A model generated the notes under the pieces. The model saw nothing but the letters and a program-made list of their open reading frames with translations, was not told the DNA's origin and did not search any database. A DNA stretch of 64,000 nt, taken from a virus. Shown here one piece after another: positions 4,401 through 64,000 of the stretch (positions are counted from its first letter, which is position 1; every line of letters starts with the position of its first letter). Location of the stretch: the IMG/VR virus record IMGVR_UViG_3300020160_000289, positions 27,549 through 91,548 of that record. One strand, written 5' to 3'. The position numbers were made by a program, and so were the translations under genes.

Positions 4401-7071
4401 CAGTTTTAAAGATCAACGTTTCTGATGCGTTGTCCATACCAAAGAAGCTTCGTCTGTATGTTGCTGTGCTAATGACCGCGCTAGGATTATAGTGGAATAA
4501 TAAACCTCGATCAAATCCGTCGTTTATTAAGATATCAGAATTGTCTGGGTTAGTACCTAAATCTATTACAGGGTCTGCGATAGAAGTCTGAGTACTGTTC
4601 ACTATTGTGGTCGTACCTTTAACAGTTAGGTTACCAACAACAGTAGCACTTCCACCCACATAGATATCTTTGCCAATACCTACGCCACCGTTAACAACAA
4701 TAGCACCGGTGGTGGTCGATACAGCATTATCCATGCTGGTAGCAAACAACTGATTAGTAAAGTTTAAACTGCCGTTTACCTGTAGATCGCTTTCGATTGT
4801 GGTCAATGACCCCGATGGATCTAATACAAGATTACCGCTAATTGTTTGAACTCTGTTTGACGAGAATAATAATGAACCAACCTGAATACTTGTTGGCTGA
4901 AGCACTGACGCATTAACGCCGTCACTGATTGTTAAACTTGATAACGGTCCTAATCTAAAGTTGGCCGTTCCAAAATCCACGTTGCCTGAACGCTGATTAA
5001 TACGGAACTGATCGCCGACACGGAAATCTCCAAGTTGATCAACTGTTTGATAGTAAACTTTTGCGCCGTTTAGTTTGACAATTTCATTATCTTGTACAGT
5101 TAGTGTCGGATCGTTGGTAAAATCTTTTCCTGAGCCAATGAAGCTCATGTTAAACGCAATGGCTTTTATGTCAATACCTTCACCGTCGGCATAGATACCA
5201 TAATTTCCGTAGCAGGCTGCGCTGCCGATACATCTTAACTCACCACCAAACTGTCTGTAGTCTGCTAGAGTAATCTGAAGGGCGCTGGCAACAACTGTGG
5301 CTGTATAAGAAGCAGTTGTTGAATAGATATTTTGTGCGCCCTGCCCATCATCTTTAAAATCTATACTGGTAGTGGCTCCATCTGCGTGGATCAATATTGT
5401 AGTATAAACATCAGAATTATAAGCAGTAGTGCTAGGAGTAAACGTGGTGGTGTTTCTACAAATGTTACTAACACGGATTTCATCCATGTAACCCTTTAAC
5501 GATACACTAGGTACTACTCCGTTACCACCAATTTCTAAAGCATCGCTGTTAGTGATACTGGCTGTTGCTGTGGTAGTTCCTTCTAGAACACCGTTAACAA
5601 ACAATCTGTTGGTGTTAAACGCATCTCGAGACATTTGCACATGATACCAACTGCCTGCGCTCAATGCTGTAGTTGCTGTGAATAGGATAGTACCGTGTTG
5701 GCCGACTAGCTTATTGTCGGCTCCAATGTACATACCAAAGGTAGTCGAAGGTGCCGACCCTTTGTTAAACAGTTGTTGTTTAGCATTAATGGAATCTAAA
5801 TAGACCCAAGATTCTAACGTGTAGGCGTTTAGGCCGTACTGTAAATCACTGTCACTAACAATGTTTAATAAGTCGCCGTTGGTTGTAAAATGTGCTGATG
5901 CTGTTCCAATTTTACGTTGGAAGCTGTCCATTGCTACATTACCGTAGACATTAATTACTTTGCCGCTACGATCTTGTGCTTCAACAAAGCCGCTGGCCTT
6001 GCCAGTTAGATATATGTATTCTGGAGTTACTTCATTAATAACGCCACTAGCCGCTACGGTACCTGTAGAGCTGATGTAATATAAATTATGCCCTACGGTG
6101 AATGTACCTGTGCTGTTGGCTAATCGTAATCGTGTACGGCCGGCGCCGCCCCAACCGGCTGATCCACTTTCGTAATGGATTCCTTTGTTGGCAAAATAGC
6201 TAAAGCCGTTTAGTAACTCTACTCGTGTACCGTTAGTAACATATACTGCGGTAGCATTTGGAGTAATGAATGTTGCTTCGTTGAATAAAAATGCCGCTTC
6301 AAGACTGGTAGAATCTACAAGAGCACCATCTAAGTATGCGCCGCCACCAGCATCTGTGCTGTCGTAGCCATATGGATCGCCTGATACAGGATTAGATCCT
6401 TTTGTAATAACACTAACTCGTTCTACATAGGGACTACGTGTTGTAATTTTCATTCCAGGATCGTATTCAAACGCATAACCTGGTTTATAAAATCCGCCAA
6501 CTGTAAGGTCGCTGATTGTAGTTTCGCCATTTAATAAAAATGCTGAACTGGTATTTGTTGCTGTAGTAGGTTTTACATATACTTGTCGAAGGCCTGCGCC
6601 ACGAACACTGACTCCGGTAGGAACAGTTAGTGGAAATTGTTCAGTATAGGTACCAGCAAGGATGTGTACAACTGCATTTTCTCCCACTGCGCCCGCAAGC
6701 TCTAAACCTTGCTTAATTGTTTGTACTGCGCTCTGAGGAATTTTTCCGTTAGCAGTATCATCACCTTGTTCGGAAACATAAAATACATGTTGGTCGGCTC
6801 GAAGGATATCCGTACCTTGTATTCTTAGTGTTCCGCCAATGTTTACATCACTGGAAAAGCCAACGCCGCCTAAAACTGTTAGGGCACCAGAAGTTGAATT
6901 CGTCGAAGAAGTAGTGGAAACAATGTTTAGCGGGCCGCCAAACGTAGATTGGCCAGATAGGCCTATGCCCCCTTTGATTATTAGGGCACCTGTAGTTGTG
7001 CTTGTCGATGTGGCAGTTAATCCGTTAAGGACTACCGCACCGTTTTTAACGATGAAATCACTTTGTGCCAT
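1495..7071 (-). CDS. Large tail fibre/appendage protein (beta-helix + LamG/ConA-like domain + Thr-rich repeats)
   Basis: 1858 aa. YVSEQGDD..G..AVQTIKQGL..AGTYTE beta-helix cap; TLESWVY..WYHVQMSR..LFVNG..GYMDEIRVS LamG-like motif; many STxTGALxVxGGxGI and TLQxVTxRG repeats. Confidence 0.8.
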   Translation of the reverse strand: MAQSDFIVKNGAVVLNGLTATSTSTTTGALIIKGGIGLSGQSTFGGPLNIVSTTSSTNSTSGALTVLGGVGFSSDVNIGGTLRIQGTDILRADQHVFYVSEQGDDTANGKIPQSAVQTIKQGLELAGAVGENAVVHILAGTYTEQFPLTVPTGVSVRGAGLRQVYVKPTTATNTSSAFLLNGETTISDLTVGGFYKPGYAFEYDPGMKITTRSPYVERVSVITKGSNPVSGDPYGYDSTDAGGGAYLDGALVDSTSLEAAFLFNEATFITPNATAVYVTNGTRVELLNGFSYFANKGIHYESGSAGWGGAGRTRLRLANSTGTFTVGHNLYYISSTGTVAASGVINEVTPEYIYLTGKASGFVEAQDRSGKVINVYGNVAMDSFQRKIGTASAHFTTNGDLLNIVSDSDLQYGLNAYTLESWVYLDSINAKQQLFNKGSAPSTTFGMYIGADNKLVGQHGTILFTATTALSAGSWYHVQMSRDAFNTNRLFVNGVLEGTTTATASITNSDALEIGGNGVVPSVSLKGYMDEIRVSNICRNTTTFTPSTTAYNSDVYTTILIHADGATTSIDFKDDGQGAQNIYSTTASYTATVVASALQITLADYRQFGGELRCIGSAACYGNYGIYADGEGIDIKAIAFNMSFIGSGKDFTNDPTLTVQDNEIVKLNGAKVYYQTVDQLGDFRVGDQFRINQRSGNVDFGTANFRLGPLSSLTISDGVNASVLQPTSIQVGSLLFSSNRVQTISGNLVLDPSGSLTTIESDLQVNGSLNFTNQLFATSMDNAVSTTTGAIVVNGGVGIGKDIYVGGSATVVGNLTVKGTTTIVNSTQTSIADPVIDLGTNPDNSDILINDGFDRGLLFHYNPSAVISTATYRRSFFGMDNASETLIFKTGVATGPFSQITPSFLSLGTWGAARFGTLKLESTGDSSGSGSGSLISNGGAYFAKRVYSGANFYDVDGKLISIVTIPQYAVTTLTAGTDTAVNTSTGAVTVWTTSTLQTVTSRGSSTNVVVQFTNTSQATSTVTGAVTIVGGLGVGGDIYGANLYSDGSLVVTQGSIGSLGITALYAGTDTSVSSQTGQVYVWNNSTLQTVTGRGFTTTNAINITNATSSTSTTTGALTVAGGIGVTGDIWAKDIYSNGVKTLTTETDTLQLVTQRGATTDRAITFSNTSQATINGSQFAVQLSGGLYVAKRTYVTGEVTVGDGGVDSRSPLNVNGNYRLQSWNDSTGGLLDLYFTGTNSTGYFSLNVNSALGLALGPNEVIRVQQGGFGSNFVGINVTTATAQLEVGGDIKANNIYANGSLVITNATLGTYGVTSINTASGGGISINTSTGNVIIQSIDDLTAVTSRGNSTTNSIIIGGLSIPQGNATIGNTLDVLLTSNLNTVNVSGILNVTATTASISTSTGAVIIAGGAGIAGNVFAGALYDQSNRVVTSVTPVGGTGISIRSGAVTVGTATSFTIDNTGVIAIQGSTYIGVNSGTGIVTITNLGVQTLTAGADLSVTSNTGTITISNTSTLQSVTNRGSTTNNAIRITNATASTATTNGALVVTGGVGIGGALNVNGNAVINGSLQVFGSQTFVNSTQTYITDPVIELGAGANDTLLGINDGYDRGLVLHYNTTSTLNTAYDNHAFLGMDNATQKLVYKTNVYPGGVENYPAAFSNTGTWGSAKFGSLELVNSTSATSTLTGAITIIGGAGIGGTVYIGEKLFVAGYEVLTSGTGGVGSYVSFITAGTDTAISTSTGAVTVWNTSTLQSITNRGATTTNIVSFTNTGNSTSTVAGNAVQVSGGIGVTGDVYIQGDVYSQGGTPLYTPRVTVSTTPPTTSTNRLGDFWIDPSIGVEYQWIWSGTRYYWIQFTGAM

Positions 7072-30850: not shown

Positions 30851-31951
30851 TTATTTTAGTCCCGCTAATTTGCGGATATCTAAAATATTATCTGAGCCTA
30901 CCTGTGGCTGTTTGTTTTCACGATCTCCAGTTACAACTGCGCTTTCAGATAGCATTTCTGGGGCTTTCGCCTTTACTGCTTTCTTCATACCGCCTTCCAT
31001 AACTGCTGGTAGGTATTTGTCAAATGCTTCATTCAGTTTTGCAGTCTGTACAGACTCTAGCAATTCTTTCATGATTCCCTTTTTGTCAGCACTTAGTGGT
31101 GCTAACAATTCCGCCATTACTTCTTTGCGATTAGCAACGTCATGAGCAACGCGGATTTCGCGGTCTTTAGACTCTACTAATTTTGCCTTTTCAGTAACAA
31201 CAGATCTTGCTTCAGCTAGCTCTAGCTCTTTCTTTTCGATAACCTTTAACAGTTTTGATGTTTCAGATTTTTCGTTCAAGTAGCTTGTGCTGAACTCTTG
31301 AGCAAACGCTTCAAATAAACGACGACCGAATGAGTTTTCACGAGCTGAGTCGATGTCTTCCTTGAGCTGTTTCATCTCTTTGGTCAATGTCTTCTTAACT
31401 GTTTCTTCAACAATTCCGGCGCTACGTTTAATAAACTTAGCTCTAACTTCTTCAAATTTGCCTTTAGCTTCGCGGACTAGACGAACTTTAGCTTCAGCTA
31501 AATCGCGCTTGTCTACAGCAAACTCGTTTATTTCTCTTGCTAGAGCAGTTACAATGAACTGTTCTAACTTAGCAAAATTCTCACTAACTTTCTTACGATC
31601 GCTTTGGAACTCTACCATTTCCTTACCTAGCTGTTTTAGAATAAATGATTCCATAACTTTGGCATCACTACCCATCTTGCGTTGATAAGCAACCTTAGCT
31701 TCCGCTAATGCTTTTTTATCTTCAGCAAGTTCAGCCATTTCAACGGCCAATCTCTCACCGACCATCTTGTCAAGTGCTTCAACCATTACGCTCTTATCAT
31801 GAGAATAACGTTGAGCAAACTCTTCACGAAGTTCAGCAGTGACTTGGTCGCGATTCTCTTGAATCTTCTGATTTAAAGCAGATTCAATCATAGACTTATC
31901 GTCTTCTGACATCATGCCACTTTCGACCAGCTTATTGAATGCGTCCAACAT
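30851..31951 (-). CDS. gp22: Prohead core scaffolding protein (gp22-like)
   Basis: 366 aa Glu/Lys coiled coil between the protease and capsid genes; GRRLFEAF motif. Confidence 0.85.
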   Translation of the reverse strand: MLDAFNKLVESGMMSEDDKSMIESALNQKIQENRDQVTAELREEFAQRYSHDKSVMVEALDKMVGERLAVEMAELAEDKKALAEAKVAYQRKMGSDAKVMESFILKQLGKEMVEFQSDRKKVSENFAKLEQFIVTALAREINEFAVDKRDLAEAKVRLVREAKGKFEEVRAKFIKRSAGIVEETVKKTLTKEMKQLKEDIDSARENSFGRRLFEAFAQEFSTSYLNEKSETSKLLKVIEKKELELAEARSVVTEKAKLVESKDREIRVAHDVANRKEVMAELLAPLSADKKGIMKELLESVQTAKLNEAFDKYLPAVMEGGMKKAVKAKAPEMLSESAVVTGDRENKQPQVGSDNILDIRKLAGLK

Positions 31952-39342: not shown

Positions 39343-39561
39343 TTGTCTCTTAGCTTAGATGAAATTCAAGAGCTAAGTGACAAGATGGAAAAAGAGACAA
39401 AAGCCTATAAACTAGAACTTTATAGAATATGCTGGTTTATGCGAGGTAGTCTATCTGTCACTGAAGCGTTTGAACTTACTAATGAAGATATTGATGTGAT
39501 GGGGAATCTAATTAAAGATAATTTAGAAACTACCAAGAAGAGCCAACTGCCCTTCTTTTAA
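39343..39561 (+). CDS. gp51-like baseplate hub assembly protein (possibly made as a -1 frameshift fusion)
   Basis: 72 aa, TTG start with a poorly spaced SD; CWFMRGSLSVTEAFEL; follows the gp26-like gene in the -1 frame. Confidence 0.65.
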   Translation: MSLSLDEIQELSDKMEKETKAYKLELYRICWFMRGSLSVTEAFELTNEDIDVMGNLIKDNLETTKKSQLPFF

Positions 39562-40379
39562 ATGTAGCAACCTAAGAACTTGCTGTAACCAACGCTTTCA
39601 CGCTGTACATTTTGTTTGAATACTGGATTGCCTTGAGCATCAGCACCGGCTAATTTCTGTCCTCCACCACCTTGAACATACTGATTAAACCCACCGCCTG
39701 TTTGCGTTGCCATGCTTTTACCTGCGGCACGTTGACCTTGTAGTCTAGCTTTAGTTGCAGCTTGTTGTGCTTTAGGATCAGGAGTGTTTGAAGCTACAGC
39801 ATTTACTTTGCCTTGTTGCTGTCCAATGCCAGGTTGGACTGGAGGAGTGGTTGCCGCAGTAGCAGGATTTGCTGCCATCTGATCTTGTGCTACCTGAGCC
39901 GCAGCCGCTTGTTTCTGTTTTCTAATATCTGCCGGAGTTGGTTGAGCAACTGCTTCAGGTTCTGTTGCTGCCGGCGCTGTTGGCTCCGGAGTATTATTGG
40001 CCACCGCCGCTACCTGTCCTTGCTGTTGACCAATTCCTGGTTCAACTTTAGGAGCACCTAATTGTTTTTGTAAATCTGCTATCTCTGCTTTCTTCTGAGC
40101 AATCTGCTGTCGTATGTCAGTCGGGTCAGCAACTCCTGCTGTACTAGCACCTGTACTTGCCGGAGCTGTACCACCTGTAGCTGGAGCAGTTTGAGGAGCA
40201 GGACCACCAGCTACTGCCAGCTTACCGCCTTGATACCCCTGCTTAAATGCAGAACCCATACCTGCAAGGCCACCTATTGCAGCACCAGTTCCTTTAGCAA
40301 GTCCCCTAGCACCTGTAGCTAGAGCAGATCCAAGACCTTCATCAGTTTGTTGTTCCGAGATTAATTCTTTAATATTCAT
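39558..40379 (-). CDS. Low-complexity putative internal head protein
   Basis: 273 aa, Ala/Gln/Gly/Pro-rich. MNIKELISE start with I-x-E motifs resembles gp21-processed capsid-targeting leaders; late promoter upstream. Confidence 0.55.
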   Translation of the reverse strand: MNIKELISEQQTDEGLGSALATGARGLAKGTGAAIGGLAGMGSAFKQGYQGGKLAVAGGPAPQTAPATGGTAPASTGASTAGVADPTDIRQQIAQKKAEIADLQKQLGAPKVEPGIGQQQGQVAAVANNTPEPTAPAATEPEAVAQPTPADIRKQKQAAAAQVAQDQMAANPATAATTPPVQPGIGQQQGKVNAVASNTPDPKAQQAATKARLQGQRAAGKSMATQTGGGFNQYVQGGGGQKLAGADAQGNPVFKQNVQRESVGYSKFLGCYI

Positions 40380-40409
40380 GTCATTTTCCTAAACAGGGAT
40401 TAATACGTT

Positions 40410-40415
40410 TATTTA
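40410..40415 (-). promoter_or_regulatory. Late promoter core TAAATA
   Basis: CATAAATA 30 nt upstream of the ORF starting at 40379. Confidence 0.65.
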
Positions 40416-40422
40416 TGTGGTT

Positions 40423-40543
40423 AAATGAGCTAACGCTCATTTGCTTCTTCGCTAATCGCTCGAAGCAATTTTATATGAAACATATAGTGCGAAGCACTTA
40501 AATATTATCTAGATTAAGCGGTCACACTAAGCCCGCTAAGGGC
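40423..40543. repeat. Cluster of short inverted repeats (hairpins)
   Basis: AAATGAGC/GCTCATTT, TTGCTTC/GAAGCAA, TATATG/CATATA, AGTGC-GAA-GCACT, GCCC/GGGC. Confidence 0.85.
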
Positions 40544-40880
40544 AAAGTTGGTTGTGAACATTATCTGAGTATCACAGTCACATAGCGTTAGAGCGGTTAC
40601 AGTGGCGGTTGTCCGGTACCACGAGCTCTGTCTTAACAACGGCGGCTTACAAATATACGCTATCATATTTGTAAAGCGTGGGGTTATGGTTAGTTCCCCA
40701 TCCTTGGGCCTTTTAAAATTTTCTTCAAACAATCAAACCGCGGCAGTTTAGCGATCTACGTCCTGTAAAGGATAGTGATTGAGTACTCTTTGCGGCGAGA
40801 GATTTCCATCCCAGCGACCCGAGGTCCTGGTTTAGGGCACCAGAAGTTTGCCAGTGCGAGCGTTATTACCGCGTGATGAG
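40505..40880 (-). ncRNA. Candidate large structured non-coding RNA (family unassigned)
   Basis: Largest non-coding gap in the window, richer in GC than other intergenic spacers, with multiple stems and a 7-bp loop-distal pairing. Strand is inferred from the flanking genes. Confidence 0.55.
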
Positions 40881-40881
40881 C

Positions 40882-41310
40882 CTAAATTTTATTTTTTATG
40901 TGAGAGCCATGGACACGGACTGAGATCTGTCCGTTATAATATTCATTTGATTCTAATACTTTGCGGTCGAATTGTTCTCGGGCCTCAATGTAAGATGTTT
41001 CTGCTTTGCTTTTACAGTAGTGTAAAATTTCTCTTGTGAAGTTTTCTTTGCCGTGCAACTCAACGTCCTTGTTGAGTTCTAAGTTTGAGCCATAATAGTC
41101 TTGCCAGTCGCTTTCTATTTTGCTTCTGATCTTCTTTTTCTTCTTGTTGCCGTTCTTTAACTTTACAGTCTTGTAGGTCGTTTTACTAAACTTTGCTAAT
41201 TTTTTGCCAACATAAAGCCTGCCAGAAGTATTACATGAGATGAGATAAACGAATCCCACACAATCCTCAGGCAGTTCTGTGACTATAGAACCTTTATGGT
41301 ACCAAGTCAT
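40882..41310 (-). CDS. GIY-YIG endonuclease (T4 endonuclease II-like)
   Basis: 142 aa. GFVY..YVGKK, YYGS, FTREIL, IEAREQF, YYNG. Confidence 0.8.
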   Translation of the reverse strand: MTWYHKGSIVTELPEDCVGFVYLISCNTSGRLYVGKKLAKFSKTTYKTVKLKNGNKKKKKIRSKIESDWQDYYGSNLELNKDVELHGKENFTREILHYCKSKAETSYIEAREQFDRKVLESNEYYNGQISVRVHGSHIKNKI

Positions 41311-41313
41311 TGA

Positions 41314-41508
41314 TTACTTTGCTGCCTTAGCTTCCTTGCGAGCGTTCTTCTCGGCAGTGATTTCATTGCGGCGGGCTTTGACTGCCTTGCCGACATCAGC
41401 TAATGCCTTGCGGGCGCGAGTACCTGCGGCGCTGTTACCTTTTTCAAACTTTTCGTTTTCTGACATATATGCTTCGTATGCAGCTAGTAAATCTTGTTGT
41501 GTGTTCAT
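41314..41508 (-). CDS. Histone H1-like Hc1-family DNA-binding protein
   Basis: 64 aa. KGNSAAGTRARKAL motif and basic tail. Confidence 0.75.
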   Translation of the reverse strand: MNTQQDLLAAYEAYMSENEKFEKGNSAAGTRARKALADVGKAVKARRNEITAEKNARKEAKAAK

Positions 41509-41801
41509 TTTTGTTTCCTTTTTTCTCTATCTTCTTTTCTTCGAGCTTTGGCTTCTTCCTTTTCTCGAAGTTGATTTCTATGTTCAGCCCATAATCTTTT
41601 TTGTTCTGCTTTATAGGCTTCTCTAAAAATCATTACTTCTGATCTATAAGCATGCATGTGGTCTTGTAGATCAGTTATTGCCCGCTTTAGCCTTAGCGAA
41701 GGTTCGTGGGTTGCGTTCTTTTTAAATGCTATGTGAGCATTGTGTATCTCCGCAACTTTATCGATAAATTCACTATAGACCTTGTCGTAATTGTTTAGCA
41801 T
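41505..41801 (-). CDS. Hypothetical basic helical protein
   Basis: 98 aa, translationally coupled to gp46 and the Hc1-like gene; R/K/E-rich C-terminus. Confidence 0.65.
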   Translation of the reverse strand: MLNNYDKVYSEFIDKVAEIHNAHIAFKKNATHEPSLRLKRAITDLQDHMHAYRSEVMIFREAYKAEQKRLWAEHRNQLREKEEAKARRKEDREKRKQK

Positions 41802-43579
41802 TATGCTTCAATGTAGTCGGCACTATTTGAGTAAGAGGTAAAACCATTTTCTTTTATAACTTTCAAAACGTTATTAACTCTACCAATTAACTCATCTTTG
41901 TGCGATATCAAGTATATATTCTTATTTCGTTCCCTGGCCATCTTTTTTAGGACCGCAAGCCCAGCTTCAACTCCGGCAGCATCCATGCCTGCGTCGATCA
42001 ACTCGTCAATGAATAACAAATTAATATGTTGATATAAATTTTCCCAAACATCACGGAAGGCAAAGCTCAAGGACAATATCAAACGATTGCGTTCTCCACG
42101 TGACAAGTTATCAAAGTCTAAGTCTTGCCCTAACTGAGTGATCTCAACATTAAGATCGTTAAGGAATTTTACCTGATGCGGTAGGCCTAGTTTAGAAATG
42201 TAATAGCTCAATCGCTTGTTCAAGTAGTTCAAGTTCTGGTCAATAATTTTCTTACGAATAAAACTATCTTTGTTTGTTAACAATTTTAACAGGAATTCTT
42301 GATGATCTCTATACTTTGTAAGCTCGTTTACAGTTGCCCAGTCGATCGGTTGAAGTGCTGTATGTTTTAGCTCTTCAATTTGTTCTTCGTACGGGTTTGC
42401 TTCTACAACTTTAGATTCTAAACTACGCTCTAAGCTAGCAAGATTATTTTTATGTCCCAACGCTTCTGCTTCTGTCTCATAAAATGTTTCCGGCCTCCGA
42501 GGAACATCACCTGTACCTATTTCATCTACAATCTTTTTTAAATCCTGCGATACTTTATCAAAGTATTTCATGGCTTCGCCTAAATGATGAGTAGCACTAG
42601 CAGTCATTTCTTCGTGTTTATGGTCGTGAAGTTCTTGTTCGCAAGCATGACAAGTCTTATTTGCTAGACTTTCTAATTCTTTTCCATACTTTGTTAGACT
42701 TTTTTCGGCTTGACCGACAGCAGATTCTAAAGTTGCTCGCTGTTTGTTTAAATTTTGAATCTTAGTTTTGTGTTCAAGCCATGCTTTAAGCTGAGCATGG
42801 GCCGCTAATTCTGCGTCGATGTCAACGCTTTCTAATTGTAATATTGCCTTGCCCAGGCTTTCTAATTCTTGATCTTTCTTAGTTTCCCAAGCACTGCTCT
42901 TTAAACCTAGGCTGTTGATGCTCTTTTGAACGTTTTCGTTGGCAGTTTTAATACCTTCGATCTTAAATGTTTCAGTTTGAATAGCATCTTTTGTGGTTTT
43001 AACTTCAGTTTTAAGCTTCTCTGCCTTCTCTGATAATAGAGTTATGCCTAACAGTTGCTCAATTACTTCACGTTGATCTGCCGCTTTAAGACTCAAAAAC
43101 GGTTCAGTATAGGTGTTCAATGCCACTAGATGCTTGAACATAGTATGGGTCATGCCCAGCATCAGCTCGATTGCCTTCTGTGTTTCTCTACTGTCGCCCT
43201 GCGACTCGTCATCATCCTTGGCTTTTTGCTCTTCTTCATTAACAAACAGCCTGAGTATGTTAGGTTTGCGACCTCGTTCGATACGAAATGCTTGCCCGTT
43301 AACCTCGAACTCAACTGTAACCAGCATGTGCTTGGCATTAGTCTTGTTAATTAAGTTTTCTTTTCTAATATTGGTCAATGCTTGGCCGTAGAGAGCATAG
43401 CTGATTGCGTTAACAATCGTAGTTTTGCCTGTGCCATTGCGAGATCCGCTGTCATCCCCACCTAGGTCTAAGTTTTCGCCTAGTACTAAAGTTAGTGCTT
43501 CTTTAGAAAAATCAACGGCTTGTGTTTGATTACCGACACTTAGGAAGTTTTTTACTGTTATATTTTTTATTTTGAACAT
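41801..43579 (-). CDS. gp46: Recombination endonuclease ATPase subunit (Rad50/SbcC-like)
   Basis: Walker A NGTGKTT, CHAC zinc hook, LSRGE signature, LLFIDE Walker B, ISH. Confidence 0.95.
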   Translation of the reverse strand: MFKIKNITVKNFLSVGNQTQAVDFSKEALTLVLGENLDLGGDDSGSRNGTGKTTIVNAISYALYGQALTNIRKENLINKTNAKHMLVTVEFEVNGQAFRIERGRKPNILRLFVNEEEQKAKDDDESQGDSRETQKAIELMLGMTHTMFKHLVALNTYTEPFLSLKAADQREVIEQLLGITLLSEKAEKLKTEVKTTKDAIQTETFKIEGIKTANENVQKSINSLGLKSSAWETKKDQELESLGKAILQLESVDIDAELAAHAQLKAWLEHKTKIQNLNKQRATLESAVGQAEKSLTKYGKELESLANKTCHACEQELHDHKHEEMTASATHHLGEAMKYFDKVSQDLKKIVDEIGTGDVPRRPETFYETEAEALGHKNNLASLERSLESKVVEANPYEEQIEELKHTALQPIDWATVNELTKYRDHQEFLLKLLTNKDSFIRKKIIDQNLNYLNKRLSYYISKLGLPHQVKFLNDLNVEITQLGQDLDFDNLSRGERNRLILSLSFAFRDVWENLYQHINLLFIDELIDAGMDAAGVEAGLAVLKKMARERNKNIYLISHKDELIGRVNNVLKVIKENGFTSYSNSADYIEA

Positions 43580-56600: not shown

Positions 56601-57041
56601 AAAGCGATTAGTGATCAGATAGTTTATCAACCAGTAAAATACAAAGTGTTATTTGGTCCTCAGGCCAATATCAATTTACAAGCAACATTTAAAGCAGTTA
56701 AGAACAGCACAAGATCAACAACAGAAAATGAATTGAAAACTAAAATTCTTTCAGCAATTGAAGGTTTCTTTTCGTTAGAAAATTGGGAGTTTGGTCAAAC
56801 TTTTTATTTTAGCGAATTGGCTACTTACGTTATGAATCTTTTAACACCGGATATTACTAACTTTATTGTAGTACCAAAATCTGATGTTTCGTTTGGTAGT
56901 CTGTATGAGATTGCTTGTCAAAACAACGAAATTTTTATTAACGGTGCCTCGGTTGACGATATAGAAATTATAGATGCAATTACTTCAAGTCAAATTAAAA
57001 CCACATCAACAATTATTAACAGCACAGTAGGAGTATATTAA
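53625..57041 (+). CDS. gp6: Baseplate wedge subunit gp6
   Basis: DFETLR, LIDLIAY, ENFLETAQRRDSILRLAQLINY, FADGTFGNLP, QNRMITAEDY. Confidence 0.9.
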   Translation: MIPSTNSKLLVAEDWKKVYQSFKNSDFKSYDFETLRRTMIAYLREKYPEDFNDYIESSEYVALIDLIAYLGQNLSFRVDLNARENFLETAQRRDSILRLAQLINYNAKRNTPASGFLKLTAISTTDNVFDANGSNLANSVIGWNDVSNLNWYQQFVTILNSAMPSTTTFGRPDDRKVINGIPTEQYTINSANLDVPAYTFTKNIGGITMPFEIVGCTFSGQNYVYETTPKPADQFRFIFQNDSKGSSSANTGFFVHFKQGTLNLTGFGVDSPVANEIVGINATNVNNDDVWLWQLSGDGAFLNNWTKVSALSGNNIIYNSLSNSQRNIFAVTTRENDQIDLNFADGTFGNLPKGQFRLFYRQSNGLKYSIKPENVNGVQINIPYYTKSGQQQTLTLTFSLQYTVTNSEGPESNTNIKTKAPQAYYTQNRMITAEDYNIAPLTAGSDILKVKSVNRISSGISKYYELSDVSGKYSSTNIFGNDGLIYQDDKTQTFSFSFTTKNEIYSVLINRLIPILESTSTRNFYLNNWPRPLLTDPSTLWKQVTKSTNQTTGYFTDTLGNPLQTGSFSSGNLTYVTAGALIKFIPAPGFVFSKNGKLISASKADSTTRTVKWVKTTLVIGDGSYNGNGALPDGTGPVTLTQIVPDGCYAEQVIPTFDTNLSYALKTDMVNLSLSKRNFGLSFAEDTRSWYLINDTDLNLTSPFSLAYQKDTTNTSLDSSWMVAFIWDGINYQVRYRITDYIFESEKETAFFFDKTSRNYDFETNTVIKDQITVLGINSSPTTSTSLIVDYGWQIDSNVIESDGYVEPKKVVVSFLDQFNDSQIDNPDAFSEIVQPGSINAFTTFKDKFVYFKRSADELTYNVTDDYILAYPTQGDIPDDSNIREEGQLFYLYDPLVDVVVSYSTSTEIPFTLAPAYFAKAGRKDLKFHYRHNSGDDRRLDPSKTNLIDVYVLTSSYDISYRNWLVTNSGIEPLAPTSSSLEENYSSVLEPIKAISDQIVYQPVKYKVLFGPQANINLQATFKAVKNSTRSTTENELKTKILSAIEGFFSLENWEFGQTFYFSELATYVMNLLTPDITNFIVVPKSDVSFGSLYEIACQNNEIFINGASVDDIEIIDAITSSQIKTTSTIINSTVGVY

Positions 57042-60000
57042 TGGCTAAAGATTTATCTCAGGTATCAGATAAAAACGAACCTACAACTAGAAAATCTGTT
57101 AATCTATTGCCTGTTTTATTTAGAACAGACAAAAATTCAAAATTTTTAGCAGGAACACTTGATCAGTTAATACAACCTCCGCAACTAAAAAGAATTGACG
57201 GATGGGTGGGTAGTAAAATTACCCCTACATTTAATTCAAGTACTGATAATTACTTGCCTTCGAACTTAAAACTAAGACAAGATTATCAGGTTGAGCCATC
57301 ATTAGTAGTAACTAACAAGCTCTTACAAGTTACTAAAACAACGTCATACGATGATGTAATAAATCAACTTAATTTTGAAGGAGCAAATACTTCAAAATTA
57401 AACAGATTGTTTAACCCTGAAGTTTATTCCTACGATCCTCACATTGACTGGGATAAGTTCATTAACTTTGAAAAATACTATTGGCTTCCAAACGGTCCGG
57501 ATGCAGTTGTAATAACTGATAAGACAAAAGAAGTTGTTAGTACATACAATGTAACTGATACTGCTGATGGAAATTATTTTGTATTTTCGCCAGACGGTCT
57601 TACGCCTATTCCTCAAATAACTTTATATAGGGGAGTTACCTATAAATTTAATATTAATTCTGATAAAACATTTTGGATTAAAACTGCCAGGGTGGCAGGC
57701 AAGGAAGCACCATTTCGATCAGTTGAAAACAACGGAATTAAAAAAGGAGTTGTTACATTAACTGTTAATAATTTAACACCGTTCACCTTGTATTTTGTGT
57801 CCGAAGAAAACGCAGTCAACGGCGGCGAAATTGTTATTAAGAAGATTGAAGAAAACACATTCATTGATGTTGAAAATGAAATCGTAGGAAAACAAAATTA
57901 TACATCTACTAACGGAATAGAATTGACCAATGGATTAAAAATTAAATTCGTTGGAACTGTTATACCCGAAACGTATGCTAACAAAGAATTTATTGTAGAA
58001 GGTGTAGGCGATAAAATCAAATTAATTGATATAGATTCTTTATCGAATCCAGAAAAATATGCTCCGGTATTTGATGAAAGATATGATAATAGCGGGTTTG
58101 ATTCTTTAGGGTATGATCAACAAAGTGCTCTTGCCACCGTGCCAGATTATATAACCATTAACAGATCTAGTCAAGATAGAAACGCTTGGAGTCGTTATAA
58201 TCGCTGGTTCCACGAAGATGTACTTATTACGTCAGCTAATGCTAATGGTGTTCCTTTGCTGTTACCGATAGGAAGCAGAGCAAAAAGGCCAATTATTGAA
58301 TTTGAATCAGATCTTCAATTATACAATTATGGAAGTGTATCTAAACCAAATGTACAATTTGTCGATACCTCTACCAAGGATGTGTTCACTGACATTGAAG
58401 GACAGCTAGGTTATTACGTCGACGGACAAGAATTAGGTCAAGGCGACAGAATTATATTCACAGCTGATAACGATTCTTTTGTAAACGGAAAAACATTTAT
58501 AGTTAATTTTATAAATTTAAACGGAAAGTTTAGGATTAATTTAGAGGAAGAAGCAGATGTTACCCCTAGCGTGGGAGATTCTGTAACAGTTACTAAAGGG
58601 ACAACATACAAAGGTACTAACTGGTGGTACAACGGTACAACTTGGGTATATTCTCAGCAAAAAGAAAAAGTAAATCAATGTCCAAAATTTGATATTTTCG
58701 ACATCAATGGTATAAGCTATAGTGATACTTCTGTATATAATACATTATTTGCTGGATCAAAAGTTTTTGGTTATTCAATGGGAACTGGTGCCAATGATCC
58801 TATTTTAGGATTTCCGTTAAGCTATAAAAATATTGCTAATCAAGGATATTATCTGTTTAAAAATTATTTTATGACAGATCAAAGTTTCATTATTAATAAA
58901 CAAATTGATGTCTCTGCCGGTTACCTAAAGAAAAACATTTCTAAATCAAACTATTCGTATATAAATGTTTGGTCAGATAAGCAACCTTATGATATTCCTA
59001 TACTTCAATATCAGGTAATAACTGAAGGTACTACTGATATAGAAATAACATCTGTGTCTAATCCTGGATATCAAAATTTAGAAATTGACGTCTTTGTTAA
59101 CAACGTAAAGAAAACACTTCAAACAGATTATACTCTTTATGCTAATGGTAGAAGGTATTACGTTATTTTTAAATCTTCATTGGCAACAGGCAGTACTGTT
59201 TTATTAAAAATTAGAACTTCGGGAACTATAAGCGATACAGGAAGTTATGAAACTTCGATTGGTTGGACAAATAATCCTCTAAACGGTCCTATCGCAGAGT
59301 TTACTTTAAGTGAGCTGTCTGATCACGTTAAATCGATGGTCGATCGACATCCTGACTTCAAAGGATCGTTTCCCGGAACGAGTAATATTCGAAATCTTAA
59401 AACATTATCTTCTTATGGAACACGATTAGTTTCTAATCAAAATCCTCTTGCGTTTGCCGGATATTTTATTGCCAACGACGAGTTTAATTTAATTTCCGCA
59501 ACAAGATTAGTCAGTAAGCATTATAATCAATTTAAACTAGGTCTAATTGATCAAATTTCTAAATTGGCAGGTAAGTACTCGCCTATACAGGCATTAGATA
59601 TTGCTCTTTATAACATGAATGTGAATAAGGATACATCATTTCCTTATTCGTTAAGCGATATGCTAGGCTACGGTACTAATGCTGTAACAAGAGAATATCC
59701 TGTAACAGACAGCAGAAATAAAACATATTCTTTACTTTCTAATTTTAAGTTAACTGATGTATCTACCCGAGCTGTTATTGTTTATCAGATTACTGCCTCC
59801 GGAAAAATTAATCAATTATTAGCAGGAATAGATTACGAATTTGATTTATACGATTCGTCTGTTCATATTAACATATCATTATCTAAAGGAGATACAATTA
59901 GGATTGATGATTATCCTGATACTCAAGGATGTTTTGTTCCACCGACTCCTTCTAAATTAGGTCTGTATCCAAAATTTGCTCCTAGGATTTATCTAGACGA

Positions 60001-63000
60001 CACGTATGCCGATACTCCTCAACGGGTCATCGAAGGGCACGACGGCAGTATTATGCTTGCCTACGGCGATGATCGAGATGACATAATTTTAGAATACGAA
60101 AAGCGTGTATTTAATAATATTAAAACAAACTACAATCCGGAGTTAGTAAACATTGATTCTGTGAGACCTGGAGCATTTAGATCTAACGATTATACTCCTA
60201 CAGAAATTAATAATATTCTTTCAAGAGAATTTTTAAAATGGGATTCTTTTTACGGATTTAATTATTCTGATAATACAACAACGGGTGATAGTCCCAAAAC
60301 TTGGAATTTTAGATCAGGTAAAGATCTTGTAACTAAATTACCATTGCCTGGTAATTGGAGAGCAATTTACAAATATTTCTTTGATACAGATAGACCTCAT
60401 ACCAACCCTTGGGAAATGTTAGGCTTACCAATTAAGCCAAAATGGTGGGACGCAGTATATGGAGTTGCTCCATATACCAGGGGTAATGAAATACTTTGGG
60501 ATGACCTTGAGAATGGTGTAATAAGAGATCCTGCCGGTATTAAAACTAACAAATTTTATTCTCGACCAGGCCTATCGTCCATTATTCCTGTAAACGACAG
60601 CGGCGAATTGTTGATGCCAAATGCAGCTAATATTGCTACTAATCTTAATTTCTTAGATTTAGATAGTAATTGGGCATTTGGTGATATGGGACCAGTTGAA
60701 ACGGCCTGGAGACGTAGCAGTAACTATCCATTCGCTTTACAAATCTTATCAGCATTGACGCATCCTGCTAGCTACAGCTCACTGTTATTTGACACCAGTC
60801 GAATGAAATTAAGCCCGGCAGGACATTATGTCTACGGAGACTTTAATGATTATATCAGTTTTGATGTATTAAAAATATATCAAGATGTAGTTGACGATTC
60901 AACAATTTTATCTGCAGGTTACAGCGTATTCTTAATTGAAGCCGGAAAGCAACGAAATAAAGATTACATCACTAAATTAAAAAATGAAATTGCCTTATTG
61001 ACATCTAGATTAAGCTATAAAGCAGGCGGCTTTATTAATAAAGATAAGTTTAAAATCATAATTGATTCTGTTAACCCTAATTCTAGTAATCCTGGAGTAT
61101 CTCTATCTAACGAAGACTATGAAGTTTTCTTAGATAAGAGCAGTCCTATTAAGAGTTTAGGTGTAAGCGGAGTAATCGTACAGAAAACAAATAAAGGATA
61201 TTCAATTAGAGGATACGATACTAAAGATCCTTACTTTACTTGCCTAATGCCTGTCTTTTCTTCTGTTGATCCTGCGATTACTATCGGCGGAAAAAGTGAA
61301 ACATACGTTGAATGGACACCGTCTTCCTTTAATCCAATGTCGGGATTTGATACAACTTCCATTAGTACCAATGACGGATATAAATTTTATAAGCAAGGAC
61401 AAATTGTAAAATATCAAAATTTATTTTACAGATGTACAATAAGTCATAATGCCGGTACTTCTTTTAATACAGCAAACTTTCAAAAATTAGTCTCAATTCC
61501 TACAAAGGGAGGAGTTACTATACAAATTCCAAGTCGTTGGGAAAAAACCACTATAGAAATTCCTTATGGGACTGAATACGAAAATATCTCAGATCTATAT
61601 TCAGTCTTAATTGGATACGGACATTGGTTAGAAACCCAAGGATTAATTTTTGATGAATATAATTCTGAGTTAGGCGAATTATTAGATTGGACATTTACTT
61701 CAAAAGAAGCCATTTATTGGGCCACACAAAATTGGGCAGTAGGCAGTGTTATCACACTAAGCCCGTTTGCTTCTATACTAAAATTTAGCAGTAGTGTTGC
61801 CGTCGTTGATGATTTGACTAATATTTTTTACGAGTACAGTATACTAAAAGCAGACGGTGCTGCACTACCGGTTAAAAATATCTCCACAGTAAGAGATGAA
61901 AGTTTGTTCAAACTTACAACAACCAACACAACTGATGGAATTTATTTTGTAAGATTAAATTTGGTACAAAAGGAACATACTATTGTTCTTGATAACAGTA
62001 CACAATTTAATGATATCATTTACGATATCGAAACAGGATATAGACAACGAAGAATTAAACTGTTAGGCTTTGTTACAGATAACTGGAACGGAGATATCTT
62101 TAGTCCCGGGTTTATATATGATGAAGCAAATATTTCTTCTTGGGAAAGATACAAAGATTATTCTGTCGGCGATGTAGTATTCTTTTCCGGCAATTACTAT
62201 GTTGCCAATATAAAGTTAGTTGGGACTGAAAACTTTAACTATAATAATTGGAGTGTACTAGGAGAAAAACCCGTTGCCCAGTTGTTGCCTAATTTTGATT
62301 ATAAGATCAATCAGTTTGAAGATTTTTATAGTTTAGATATAGATAATTTTGATATTTCTCAACAACAACTATCACAGCATTTAACTGGATATAGTCCTCG
62401 ACAATACCTTGACAACATATTTGTTGATTCTATTGCCCAGTACAAATTTTATCAAGGGTTTATCAAAGAAAAAGGTACTAAAAATACTATTGATAAACTA
62501 GGAAAAGCAAGTATTGTTTCTCAAGGAAGTTACATTGACTTCTATGAAAATTGGGCAGTAAGAATTGGAGAGTATGGATCTTTTCCAACAAGCCAGACTC
62601 TTGAATTTAATTTAGACGAAACTAAATTTAAAGAAAATCCACAAATTGTTAAATTTGTTGATATTCCTCCAGTTGAACCTAACGAGTTTATAAATTACAG
62701 AACACCTAGTCAGGTTGTTATTAAACCTGATAACTATGATAACAATCCGTTTGTTACATCTAATTCATTAGCATCTAGCGGTACATTATTGCCTACGGCA
62801 GGGTATGTGAGATTAGACGATGTAACCGCGACTGCGTTTAACAAAAATAGTTTATTAGACGTTGCCAACAATCGTGGAATCAGGGATGGCGATACAGTAT
62901 GGATTGGATTTAATTCAAACGGTGACTGGGACGTTACTAGATATTCACAAATTGAAACAACAGTTATAGATGCTGCAATTTATATTCCCGGCGTATCTCT

Positions 63001-64000
63001 GTTATTAACCACAGACTATTTCCATGGTTTAAGAACCGGTGACCTAATAAGCGTAAGTCAGTTTGATTCTCAAGTTGATGGAATATACACTGTTGAAGCT
63101 GTTCCTGAATTAAATCAAATTATTGTTAGTTCTGTTCTATCCGATTTAACAATACCATTTAGTCCTGCTATTGGATTAATTTTTAAATTTATAAGTTCTA
63201 GATTTGAAACCTTTGACGATTTGGCAGACTTGCCTACACTTCACAGATTTGAAACCGGAGAAAAAGTTTGGATTGATAATACAGATATTACCTCTGATGA
63301 GTCTAAGTGGGCAGTTTATGAAAAGATAGATAATTTTTTAATTGATAAGTTTGAGTCTCCTTATAATGAGTATGAGTTGACTAGTAATCAAAGATTTGGA
63401 TATGCTATAACAGGAAATTCCCAAGGAACTCATATTGCTATTAGTTCTCCAAATTATCTTTCTCCTGTATCTCAAACAGCAGGAAGAATTTATACATATA
63501 GAAAAACAGGTCCAGGTGTCAGTGATTTAACATACACAGGAAATATTTTACCTAATGTAACAAGTATCCAAACTTATTTTACAGGAACAAATGTTTCTAG
63601 CTTTGGATCAGTAATGAAATTTGACAGCGACAATGATATTATCATTGCCGGAGCTCCACTAGCATCTGGTGTTCGATATTCTCTATCAGCAAACAAATTC
63701 AGTCCAGTGTCGTCTTCAAGTTTATATTTTCCTCCTAATAACTATATAGAACAGGGATTTATTACATTAACAAGAATTAATTTTGAAGAGGCCAGCTCTC
63801 CTGCTAGAATTGCTCTAGCTAGTCCACAGCCGCAGGCAGGAGCACGTTTTGGATCGGAAATTTTCTTAGGTAATATTACATCTTCTCAAAAGATTTTATT
63901 TGTATCAAGTCCTGAACAAGACGGTGTGGGCGCCGTACATTATACTAAGATCAATGTTAGCTCTTTAACTTCAATTGTTGATTCTGGGGTATCTGTTACA
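57041..64000 (+). CDS. Very large baseplate wedge/fibre protein (gp7-position), truncated at window end
   Basis: ATG at 57041 overlaps the gp6 TAA. MAKDLSQVSDKNEPTTRKSVNLLPVLFRTD.. stays in frame to the window end (>=2320 aa; spot-checked at the start, the end and internal motifs). FG-GAP-like repeats near 63400-63950. Confidence 0.8.
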   Translation, partial: MAKDLSQVSDKNEPTTRKSVNLLPVLFRTDKNSKFLAGTLDQLIQPPQLKRIDGWVGSKITPTFNSSTDNYLPSNLKLRQDYQVEPSLVVTNKLLQVTKTTSYDDVINQLNFEGANTSKLNRLFNPEVYSYDPHIDWDKFINFEKYYWLPNGPDAVVITDKTKEVVSTYNVTDTADGNYFVFSPDGLTPIPQITLYRGVTYKFNINSDKTFWIKTARVAGKEAPFRSVENNGIKKGVVTLTVNNLTPFTLYFVSEENAVNGGEIVIKKIEENTFIDVENEIVGKQNYTSTNGIELTNGLKIKFVGTVIPETYANKEFIVEGVGDKIKLIDIDSLSNPEKYAPVFDERYDNSGFDSLGYDQQSALATVPDYITINRSSQDRNAWSRYNRWFHEDVLITSANANGVPLLLPIGSRAKRPIIEFESDLQLYNYGSVSKPNVQFVDTSTKDVFTDIEGQLGYYVDGQELGQGDRIIFTADNDSFVNGKTFIVNFINLNGKFRINLEEEADVTPSVGDSVTVTKGTTYKGTNWWYNGTTWVYSQQKEKVNQCPKFDIFDINGISYSDTSVYNTLFAGSKVFGYSMGTGANDPILGFPLSYKNIANQGYYLFKNYFMTDQSFIINKQIDVSAGYLKKNISKSNYSYINVWSDKQPYDIPILQYQVITEGTTDIEITSVSNPGYQNLEIDVFVNNVKKTLQTDYTLYANGRRYYVIFKSSLATGSTVLLKIRTSGTISDTGSYETSIGWTNNPLNGPIAEFTLSELSDHVKSMVDRHPDFKGSFPGTSNIRNLKTLSSYGTRLVSNQNPLAFAGYFIANDEFNLISATRLVSKHYNQFKLGLIDQISKLAGKYSPIQALDIALYNMNVNKDTSFPYSLSDMLGYGTNAVTREYPVTDSRNKTYSLLSNFKLTDVSTRAVIVYQITASGKINQLLAGIDYEFDLYDSSVHINISLSKGDTIRIDDYPDTQGCFVPPTPSKLGLYPKFAPRIYLDDTYADTPQRVIEGHDGSIMLAYGDDRDDIILEYEKRVFNNIKTNYNPELVNIDSVRPGAFRSNDYTPTEINNILSREFLKWDSFYGFNYSDNTTTGDSPKTWNFRSGKDLVTKLPLPGNWRAIYKYFFDTDRPHTNPWEMLGLPIKPKWWDAVYGVAPYTRGNEILWDDLENGVIRDPAGIKTNKFYSRPGLSSIIPVNDSGELLMPNAANIATNLNFLDLDSNWAFGDMGPVETAWRRSSNYPFALQILSALTHPASYSSLLFDTSRMKLSPAGHYVYGDFNDYISFDVLKIYQDVVDDSTILSAGYSVFLIEAGKQRNKDYITKLKNEIALLTSRLSYKAGGFINKDKFKIIIDSVNPNSSNPGVSLSNEDYEVFLDKSSPIKSLGVSGVIVQKTNKGYSIRGYDTKDPYFTCLMPVFSSVDPAITIGGKSETYVEWTPSSFNPMSGFDTTSISTNDGYKFYKQGQIVKYQNLFYRCTISHNAGTSFNTANFQKLVSIPTKGGVTIQIPSRWEKTTIEIPYGTEYENISDLYSVLIGYGHWLETQGLIFDEYNSELGELLDWTFTSKEAIYWATQNWAVGSVITLSPFASILKFSSSVAVVDDLTNIFYEYSILKADGAALPVKNISTVRDESLFKLTTTNTTDGIYFVRLNLVQKEHTIVLDNSTQFNDIIYDIETGYRQRRIKLLGFVTDNWNGDIFSPGFIYDEANISSWERYKDYSVGDVVFFSGNYYVANIKLVGTENFNYNNWSVLGEKPVAQLLPNFDYKINQFEDFYSLDIDNFDISQQQLSQHLTGYSPRQYLDNIFVDSIAQYKFYQGFIKEKGTKNTIDKLGKASIVSQGSYIDFYENWAVRIGEYGSFPTSQTLEFNLDETKFKENPQIVKFVDIPPVEPNEFINYRTPSQVVIKPDNYDNNPFVTSNSLASSGTLLPTAGYVRLDDVTATAFNKNSLLDVANNRGIRDGDTVWIGFNSNGDWDVTRYSQIETTVIDAAIYIPGVSLLLTTDYFHGLRTGDLISVSQFDSQVDGIYTVEAVPELNQIIVSSVLSDLTIPFSPAIGLIFKFISSRFETFDDLADLPTLHRFETGEKVWIDNTDITSDESKWAVYEKIDNFLIDKFESPYNEYELTSNQRFGYAITGNSQGTHIAISSPNYLSPVSQTAGRIYTYRKTGPGVSDLTYTGNILPNVTSIQTYFTGTNVSSFGSVMKFDSDNDIIIAGAPLASGVRYSLSANKFSPVSSSSLYFPPNNYIEQGFITLTRINFEEASSPARIALASPQPQAGARFGSEIFLGNITSSQKILFVSSPEQDGVGAVHYTKINVSSLTSIVDSGVSVT

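Follow-up and report, generated by a model that had tools for sequence, protein, structure and literature searches.

Evidence for a Long Form of the Polynucleobacter-1 RNA with Two Pseudoknots and Twin Boxes in a Freshwater T4-like Phage

What is encoded in the 502-nucleotide (nt) gap that separates a GIY-YIG nuclease gene from the next open reading frame (ORF) in an uncultured freshwater T4-like phage? The DNA analyzed here, referred to as the window, is a stretch of 64,000 nt that forms the final 64 kilobases (kb) of the 91.5-kb IMG/VR virus record IMGVR_UViG_3300020160_000289, for which the completeness is estimated to be 25%. The gap occupies positions 40380-40881 of the window, with the GIY-YIG ORF on one side and the next ORF of the minus strand on the other. 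The genes around it, which encode a gp46/SbcC-like ATPase, a protein of 98 amino acids (aa), an Hc1-like protein, and the GIY-YIG nuclease, are all found on the minus strand. An earlier reading of the letters alone (the original prediction) had placed a large, pseudoknotted RNA of no assigned family at this locus. We now consider it very probable that the gap encodes a single structured noncoding RNA of ~380-460 nt on the minus strand, the 5' third of which is a bona fide copy of the catalogued Polynucleobacter-1 motif and the rest of which is a conserved extension. Taken overall, this is, with fairly high confidence, the best explanation of the locus.

The Catalogued Motif and Its Extension

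Relatives of the gap were fetched by a pattern derived from two invariant words of the motif, which returned 43 true loci on viral contigs and 45 on metagenome contigs. The final set, with the window included, comprises 83 motif-bearing loci, 53 of them unique, which were assigned to clades A (window-like), B, and C. The gap was found to be noncoding. Its only sizable sense ORF (72 aa with a TTG start, 40514-40732) corresponds to a stretch that is free of stop codons in only 3 of the 53 unique relatives, and 215 of the 235 internal gap runs in the alignment of the relatives are not multiples of three. The original claim that some 500 nt at this place hold no credible ORF was therefore correct, as was the statement that the RNA carries no signature of a transfer RNA (tRNA), a transfer-messenger RNA (tmRNA), RNase P, or an intron. 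Neither a tRNA nor a tmRNA was found in the 64-kb window.

The whole window was compared with Rfam 15 using cmscan, and a single match above threshold was obtained, to RF01718 (Polynucleobacter-1), at positions 40862-40727 and on the minus strand only. The match scores 115.4 bits, the gathering score being 37, and has an expectation value (E) of 2.4e-24. The 136 nt of this 5' domain (40727-40862, minus strand) span positions 1-141 of the 141 in the model and are thus full length, and no other copy is present in the 91.5-kb record. Within the RF01718 helices, columns 10-14/29-33, 42/61, and 73-77/87-90 show 4-18 double changes among 32 sequences. The 5' portion of the RNA is thus not unassigned, as had been supposed, and since the original prediction had held that a match to a described Rfam family would remove the novelty, part of that novelty is gone by its own rule. 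What stands of the predicted large RNA is that it is conserved, pseudoknotted, and noncoding. What is new here is the extension beyond the Rfam model, with its pseudoknots and twin boxes.

The similarity among the viral loci extends far past the 141-nt Rfam model. When the whole gap was used as the query in a blastn search, identities of 72-94% (mostly 72-80%) were found to reach as far as query position ~380-474 of 502 in about half of the 43 viral loci. Across the 83 loci and the three clades, both conservation and compensatory changes persist for ~240-310 nt beyond the end of the model. The core of this 3' extension (40491-40726, minus strand) lies outside every Rfam model, with no Rfam family reaching threshold on it, and it contains covarying pairs. 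Of the full-length, doubly pseudoknotted RNA, the catalogued motif makes up no more than the 5' third. The gap gave no blastn match among 50,697 phage records, and at that sensitivity no cultured relative has the RNA. A pattern scan of genome contigs found the motif in none among the matches listed, a result that has no bearing on bacterial genomes generally.

The Polynucleobacter-1 motif was reported by Weinberg et al. (2010, Genome Biol 11:R31; PMC2864571) as an RNA of unknown function and was graded as a possible cis-regulator. According to the supplement of that paper, the motif came from fresh-water and estuary samples and from one Polynucleobacter genome, and it was found mostly 3' of genes similar to GOS11034 or to PSSM2_218, the latter from cyanophage P-SSM2. 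The same paper noted that the motif's 3' half was not always detected. The GIY-YIG ORF of the window is 33% identical to PSSM2_218 of P-SSM2 (E of 7e-9, tblastn), and the gene context of the window RNA is therefore the same as that published for the motif. The window RNA resembles the published motif in matching the whole 141-position model, in its place 3' of a PSSM2_218-like gene, and in the origin of its loci from lake-water libraries. It differs in that the Rfam model ends at 40727, whereas the window RNA continues with the two pseudoknots and the twin boxes. It also differs in its carriers, since the 83 loci collected here are on viral and lake metagenome contigs, mostly T4-like, whereas the 2010 paper found no copy in any purified phage. 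In the literature, only the 141-nt motif was found to be described, and no longer form.

A Fold with Two Pseudoknots

The minus strand of the gap was calculated to fold with a z-score of -2.83, and none of 100 shuffled sequences folds as well; the z-score for the plus strand is -1.89. The helices hold many G-U pairs, which would be A-C pairs if the plus strand were the RNA, and these pairs, together with the Rfam match to the minus strand only, identify minus as the RNA strand. The operon proposed in the original prediction had implied the minus strand, and that much holds, with the correction that it is the minus strand on which the RNA functions. The individual helices that had been listed are present where they were predicted to be. 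These include CCAGGACC/GGTCCTGG at 40811-40830, CAATCA/TGATTG (40730-40781) around TCCT/AGGA, GGGG/CCCC (40679-40700), the stem of 10 base pairs (bp) at 40647-40674, and the shorter AGAGC/GCTCT, GTGG/CCAC, CGG/CCG, and GCCC/GGGC stems.

Covariation in the 3' part of the RNA was counted on an alignment (A2) of 21 clade A sequences, using a structure that combines the RNAalifold result with the pseudoknot of the original prediction. The 52 pairs of this structure are 93% paired, and 25 of them are changed on both sides. The covariation score was determined to be 0.368; shuffled alignments gave 0.175, with 0 of 500 scoring as high as the real one, and slid partners gave 0.05-0.09. Covariation across a collection of related loci had been put forward as a check on the original prediction, and its outcome favors the RNA. 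Applied to a MAFFT alignment of all clades, RNAalifold recovered no more than 35 pairs, the cause being the misalignment of clades B and C; these two clades were checked by direct sequence look-up.

The most prominent element of the 3' part is the long hairpin Hb (40645-40677, minus strand), which includes the 10-bp stem. It has 12 pairs, 10 of which are changed on both sides, and it is 95.6% paired. The 7-nt loop of Hb, AUAGCGU (40657-40663), is the 5' strand of pseudoknot 1 and pairs with ACGCUAU at 40582-40588. Six core pairs of this pseudoknot are 99% paired and five of the six are compensated, while the seventh is 76% paired. Over the three clades, 8 distinct complementary sequence pairs were found, and the Hb-loop pseudoknot of the original prediction is upheld. 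The versions in other lineages include UUAGUGU/ACACUAA, UUAGCAG/CUGCUAG, and ACAAUA/UAUUGU, with CUCUAAU/AUUAGAG in clade B and CCACUUA/UAAGUGG and CUACUUA/UAAGUAG in clade C.

Pseudoknot 2 is formed by GUUGU (40634-40638) and ACAAC (40608-40612), the latter in a loop beside ACCGCC. Three of its five pairs are compensated and it is 94% paired, with GUCAU/AUGAC and GCUGG/CCAAC among the relatives. The junction domain (40590-40629, minus strand) consists of an outer AGAGC/GCUCU helix, an inner GUGG/CCAC helix, and a conserved core, GGUACCG-N4-ACCGCC, of which ACCGCC is invariant in 32 sequences. Compensation was found for 4/5 pairs in the outer helix and 1/5 in the inner helix, and these helices are 95-97% paired. 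In clades B and C, the UAA linker of the junction domain is replaced by an additional hairpin.

Two known structural classes were considered for this fold and rejected. An 11-nt GAAA tetraloop receptor (CCUAAG/UAUGG) was suggested by the invariant CCU..A and GAUGG, but the platform varies (AA, GA, AG, AU, GG, GC, or AC) among the 32 sequences. A group I or group II intron with a homing endonuclease is not supported by any match to an intron family at E values up to 10 (RF00028, RF00029, or related models being sought). Moreover, the Hc1-like gene ends 3 nt before the start of the GIY-YIG gene, and there is thus no room for a 5' intron half.

Twin Boxes That Change in Parallel

Downstream of pseudoknot 1, the RNA contains a duplicated module that is composed of GUGUGAC (AUGUGAC in the first copy), a spacer of 7-10 nt, three pyrimidines, and a 7-nt box. 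Box 1 (40560-40566) and box 2 (40504-40510), which is 56 nt downstream of box 1, both read AGAUAAU on the minus strand of the window. The two copies of the module are separated by a conserved hairpin, which in the window is CUUUGCCC/GGGCUUAG (40527-40547, minus strand), followed by the conserved GUGUGAC.

The boxes are 48-59 nt apart among the relatives, and at least 11 variants were found, including AGAUAAU, GGAUAAU, GAAUAAU, GCAUAAU, GGAUGAA, AGAUGAU, GGAUGAU, AGGAUAAU, AGCGAAA, GACAAAAG, and GGUGAAA. The two copies are identical in ~47 of the 50 unique RNAs. Unequal pairs, which differ by one or two bases, occur in L238 (918-1153), with GCAUAAU and ACAUAAU, and in L030 (9304-9773), with GACAGGAAU and GACAAGUAU; these could be intermediates of a box change or assembly errors in short contigs. 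Among the 36 sequences of clade A, a change at any variable position of one box is matched at the equivalent position of the other, with 0-1 exceptions, and by no other column, the next best having 2-7 exceptions. The covariation between the boxes is parallel and not complementary. Since the boxes drift between lineages and yet stay identical to one another, they point to an outside reader, or to a copying step, for which the two boxes are equivalent and A and G are not.

A number of more familiar roles for the boxes were tried and set aside. Pairing between box 1 and box 2, as proposed by RNAalifold, has 0 compensated pairs and is broken when the boxes change. The U-rich AUUGUUU with which the Rfam domain ends (40727-40733) is able to form wobble pairs with many of the boxes, yet it is constant while the boxes vary. 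Likenesses by eye to a Shine-Dalgarno sequence, an anticodon loop, box C/D, a DnaA box, and lambda boxB each fit only some of the box variants. A tyrosine-recombinase core or an integron attC site was rejected, since no conserved inverted arms were found at either box in clade A and the short stems beside the boxes are out of register from one sequence to the next. The stretch from one box to the other was also considered as a small ORF or as a site of ribosome hopping, but its AUG is conserved in neither position nor frame and is missing from clade C.

Elsewhere in the window, 2 more sense copies of box-like words were found, against a total of 0.87 expected. One lies within an ORF and the other within the giant ORF, and they were judged to be due to chance. 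One open frame of at least 2320 aa occupies positions 57041-64000 (plus strand) and runs off the end of the window. Separately, an 11-nt word that is the same as box 2 with its 3' flank (AGAUAAUAUUU) was noticed at 30886-30896 (minus strand), inside the 3' end of a 366-aa ORF; ~0.03 chance matches are expected for such a word, in a search that was made post hoc.

The RNA may instead be one that processes itself or serves as a template, with a catalytic core that cuts or joins at the boxes, so as to release, circularize, or splice out the segment of 48-59 nt, or with boxes that act as realignment sites when this segment is copied repeatedly, in the manner of the direct repeats at the template ends in telomerase and DRT2. 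Identical direct repeats around a unit of constant size would suit a cleavage and ligation that restores the junction, or template jumping, and a large invariant core with pseudoknots is typical of ribozymes. However, no ribozyme family in Rfam was matched at E values up to 10, no gene for a polymerase or a reverse transcriptase is found nearby, and no reads or contigs that skip from one box to the other or join the two backward were found, although only contigs of relatives were available for this comparison. We regard such a self-acting RNA as quite improbable.

Neighboring Enzymes, RNA Ends, and the Possible Role of the RNA

The RNA lies 3' of the gp46, Hc1-like, and GIY-YIG genes and on the same strand, as originally described. 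The gp46/SbcC-like ATPase is encoded at 41801-43579, the Hc1-like protein of 64 aa at 41314-41508 (PF07432, E of 5e-13), and the GIY-YIG nuclease of 142 aa at 40882-41310, all on the minus strand. The nuclease consists of a catalytic domain only and matches PF19835 (SegE_GIY-YIG) over residues 3-129 with an E of 1.4e-31, as well as phrog_447; a search of PDB sequences with this protein returned nothing below an E of 0.3. The small Hc1-like protein matches the family of the chlamydial histone H1-like protein Hc1. On many of the related phage contigs it is conserved as the neighbor of the GIY-YIG nuclease, and a histone-like protein is unusual for a T4-like phage. On the other side of the RNA is a low-complexity ORF of 273 aa (39558-40379, minus strand) that is rich in Ala, Gly, and Pro, and beyond it are convergent baseplate genes. 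This ORF is not kept beside the RNA in most of the relatives, being missing from most related loci, and its sole Pfam match, to Diphtheria_T (E of 0.008, 16.8 bits against a cutoff of 27), falls short of the threshold and is probably spurious.

The nuclease is not the only enzyme found in the company of the RNA. A GIY-YIG homologue adjoins the RNA, ending just upstream of it, in 64 of the 83 loci, and in L220 and L041 this position is occupied by a PDDEXK_15 nuclease. In L020 (4678-8167), the GIY-YIG gene (6489-6917) stands between two radical-SAM genes, one of which has a B12-binding domain; one of these two genes and an ORF of 151 aa come between it and the RNA. In clade C (L202:5343-6396, minus strand; L240, L208, L224, L241, and L199), the upstream gene is divergent and encodes a DUF6641 protein, and an outer-membrane efflux gene is found nearby. 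There, the homology breaks off after the terminal hairpins of the RNA, and a variable cassette of 369-871 nt follows, the small ORFs of which differ from locus to locus. The homology resumes at a conserved hairpin, GTGGCA-NAAA-TGCCAC, ahead of a gene for a protein of 188 aa that consists of only the catalytic domain of a tyrosine recombinase. This region looks like a cassette hot spot, and the setting as a whole looks like a bacterial island. The gene content 3' of the RNA varies among the phage loci as well. Three unrelated, domain-only DNA enzymes thus accompany the RNA, on either side of it.

The start of the RNA is ~20 nt after the GIY-YIG stop codon, and no promoter-like site was found between the GIY-YIG ORF and the RNA, which is probably made by read-through of the gp46/Hc1-like/GIY-YIG operon. 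After box 2 there is a small terminator-like hairpin (40486-40498, minus strand) with a 5-bp stem and a 3-nt loop, followed by AUAUGUUUCA, which is a possible 3' end; the corresponding stems in the relatives are CUGC/GCAG or CUAC/GUAG. Two conserved terminal hairpins are found further on (40423-40466, minus strand), with stems that covary over clades A and C. The first of these has an invariant interior, GAGCG-N3-4-GCGAA, that occurs exactly once in the 64-kb window, and the pair is either part of the RNA or its terminators. The consensus for T4 late promoters is TATAAATA. By likeness to this consensus, CATAAATA (40410-40417, minus strand) may be a late promoter for the downstream gene that marks the end of the RNA unit, and ATAAATA-like words are found at the same place in the relatives. 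The 3' end of the RNA is probably at the hairpins ahead of CATAAATA, between ~40480 and 40420.

This arrangement could be taken to mean that the sequence is a cis-acting element of a messenger RNA, serving either as a stabilizer or processing signal in the 3' untranslated region (UTR) of the nuclease operon or as a leader or riboswitch for the downstream gene. In favor of such an element, the RNA follows the GIY-YIG stop codon by 20 nt in the same orientation and no promoter-like site intervenes, the motif was graded as a possible cis-regulator in 2010, and in clade C the RNA is upstream of the cassette and the recombinase gene. Nevertheless, we consider a cis-acting role to be rather unlikely. 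The strongest point against the UTR reading is that the position is not fixed: the RNA is 3' of the nuclease gene in the phages and 5' of the cassette in the island-like loci, and an RNA that is sometimes 3' and sometimes 5' of the enzyme genes is not a fixed UTR element. In addition, the next gene converges on the RNA in L020 and in clade B, the terminator-like hairpins and the late-promoter-like word separate the RNA from the downstream gene, and the two pseudoknots and ~60 invariant positions exceed what known stabilizers need. A riboswitch or leader was rejected, since there is no constant 5'-UTR position ahead of related genes, the downstream genes being unrelated between loci or convergent.

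Another reading is that the boxes act as DNA rather than as RNA. Iterons and crossover cores are direct repeats that are identical within a replicon and different between replicons, and the boxes behave in the same manner. They might therefore be sites that are read by a protein, either iterons or the identical crossover cores of two recombination sites, overlaid on an RNA gene, and would then be connected with the recombinase or nuclease nearby and with the variable cassettes. The variable cassette and tyrosine recombinase that follow the RNA in clade C, and the variable downstream gene content in the phages, would fit this arrangement. However, the surroundings of the boxes are under selection at the RNA level, as seen from the compensatory changes and the G-U pairs; the boxes have no conserved inverted arms; a spacing of 48-59 bp is too tight for synapsis by a recombinase; no copy of the box is found at the cassette boundaries; and most of the loci have a nuclease and not a recombinase. 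We judge a role at the DNA level to be very improbable.

The original prediction had put forward a ribozyme, a nuclease-associated RNA, or a replication primer as candidate roles. RNAs that are this large and conserved are usually ribozymes, ribonucleoprotein scaffolds, or guides. The mechanism that we prefer, which as a whole is tentative and more doubtful than not, is that of a stable, compact, trans-acting RNA. In such a mechanism, a single nucleic-acid partner sequence would dock in a sequence-specific manner at the two identical boxes, and the RNA would be the scaffold or the specificity subunit that works with the neighboring domain-only DNA enzyme, whether GIY-YIG, PD-(D/E)XK, or a small tyrosine recombinase. 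Beyond the folding and the two identical boxes, these steps are ones that we infer. In its boldest form, the RNA would be a programmable specificity subunit, with boxes that pair to the same core sequence, present either in two separate DNA partners or twice in a single one. The RNA would in this way dictate where a bare GIY-YIG or PD-(D/E)XK nuclease, or the bare catalytic domain of a tyrosine recombinase, cuts or joins DNA. We consider this form to be a long shot. If true, it would add a new class of system in which RNA directs the cutting and joining of DNA, tied to the variable cassettes beside the RNA.

Several observations weigh against a trans-acting RNA that is partnered with the adjacent enzyme. 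The GIY-YIG homologues in P-SSM2, phiM7, and ACP17 are directly followed by another gene, and that in Melnitz-3 by a gap of 148 nt; RF01718 was found in none of these four cultured phages. The enzyme family therefore works without the RNA, which argues against an obligate pair of nuclease and RNA. The divergence of the RNA is weakly correlated with that of the GIY-YIG protein (rho of 0.23), whereas each tracks gp46 (rho of 0.56-0.59). With respect to the boxes, no complement at a consistent place was found in cis, in the flanks (-800 to +1500 nt), or in the window, and 7 nt is short for a guide. The predicted accessibility of the boxes is 0.47 and 0.50, compared with 0.42 overall, and the boxes are not clearly unpaired; this prediction is uninformative. 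Finally, the three metatranscriptome libraries of lake water, which come from three studies, yielded nothing but contigs of relatives, most of which are 88-95% alike. These cover the GIY-YIG gene together with conserved pieces of the RNA (40555-40636, 40722-40789, and 40597-40628 joined to 40708-40797). Since only relatives are represented and a carry-over of DNA is possible, these libraries were not counted as evidence for transcription or for the ends, strand, or level of the RNA.

The gp46 correlations also bear on the inheritance of the locus. The idea that the GIY-YIG gene and the RNA form a mobile cassette was rejected, since both track the identity of gp46, and the two are therefore resident, strongly constrained, and mostly inherited vertically rather than hopping as a unit.

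Some of the same observations would be expected if the RNA were a decoy or sponge, with boxes that mimic and soak up a factor of the host or of a rival phage, such as a small RNA, a nuclease site, or a defense sensor, and if the neighboring nuclease were unrelated to it. The boxes evolve fast and yet remain identical, as in an arms race; no partner is found in cis; the GIY-YIG homologues work without the RNA; and the RNA is also found in island-like loci that have no nuclease. Against this, no candidate partner was identified, the recurrence of three unrelated domain-only DNA enzymes would have to be a coincidence, and the large invariant core exceeds what a sponge needs. A decoy therefore appears to be unlikely.

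The preferred reading, in which the RNA acts in trans with a DNA enzyme, has parallels among known systems. The omega RNAs of IscB and TnpB (formerly HEARO) and the bridge or seek RNAs of IS110 and IS1111 are also large structured RNAs beside a small enzyme that cuts or joins DNA, and they also carry short variable segments within a conserved scaffold. In contrast, the enzymes here have GIY-YIG, PD-(D/E)XK, and tyrosine recombinase folds, and there are no transposon ends. Both variable segments of the RNA described here are identical rather than matched to two different DNAs, and no target complement was found in the RNA, its flanks, or the window. The GIY-YIG family does not strictly co-occur with the RNA, as seen in the four phages that lack it. 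The likeness may be taken as a lead. GOLLD, ROOL, OLE, and raiA are similar to the window RNA in being ornate, pseudoknotted RNAs of hundreds of nucleotides that were found by comparative genomics, are often carried by phages, and have no known function. However, none of them was matched by the window RNA at E values up to 10, twin boxes have not been described for them, and the window RNA is smaller than GOLLD and ROOL. The ToxI RNA of type III toxin-antitoxin systems and CRISPR-like repeats share with it an RNA that contains direct repeats and is encoded next to a nuclease, as well as A-rich repeated words. Here, however, the repetition is limited to ~7-12 nt and GUGUGAC and does not extend over entire tandem units, the two modules have different spacers and hairpins, and the Rfam scan gave no match to CRISPR or ToxI.

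The Polynucleobacter-1 RNA has been an orphan since 2010, when it was described as a small RNA of 141 nt, and both the Rfam model and the pipelines used for phage annotation could now be extended over the gap of 0.4 kb. The RNA is found to be a resident of freshwater T4-like phages and of island-like loci that bear a recombinase. The constraint that keeps its twin boxes identical is unusual and can be tested directly, and the steady presence of three unrelated domain-only DNA enzymes next to the RNA is a hint as to where the reader of these boxes may be sought.

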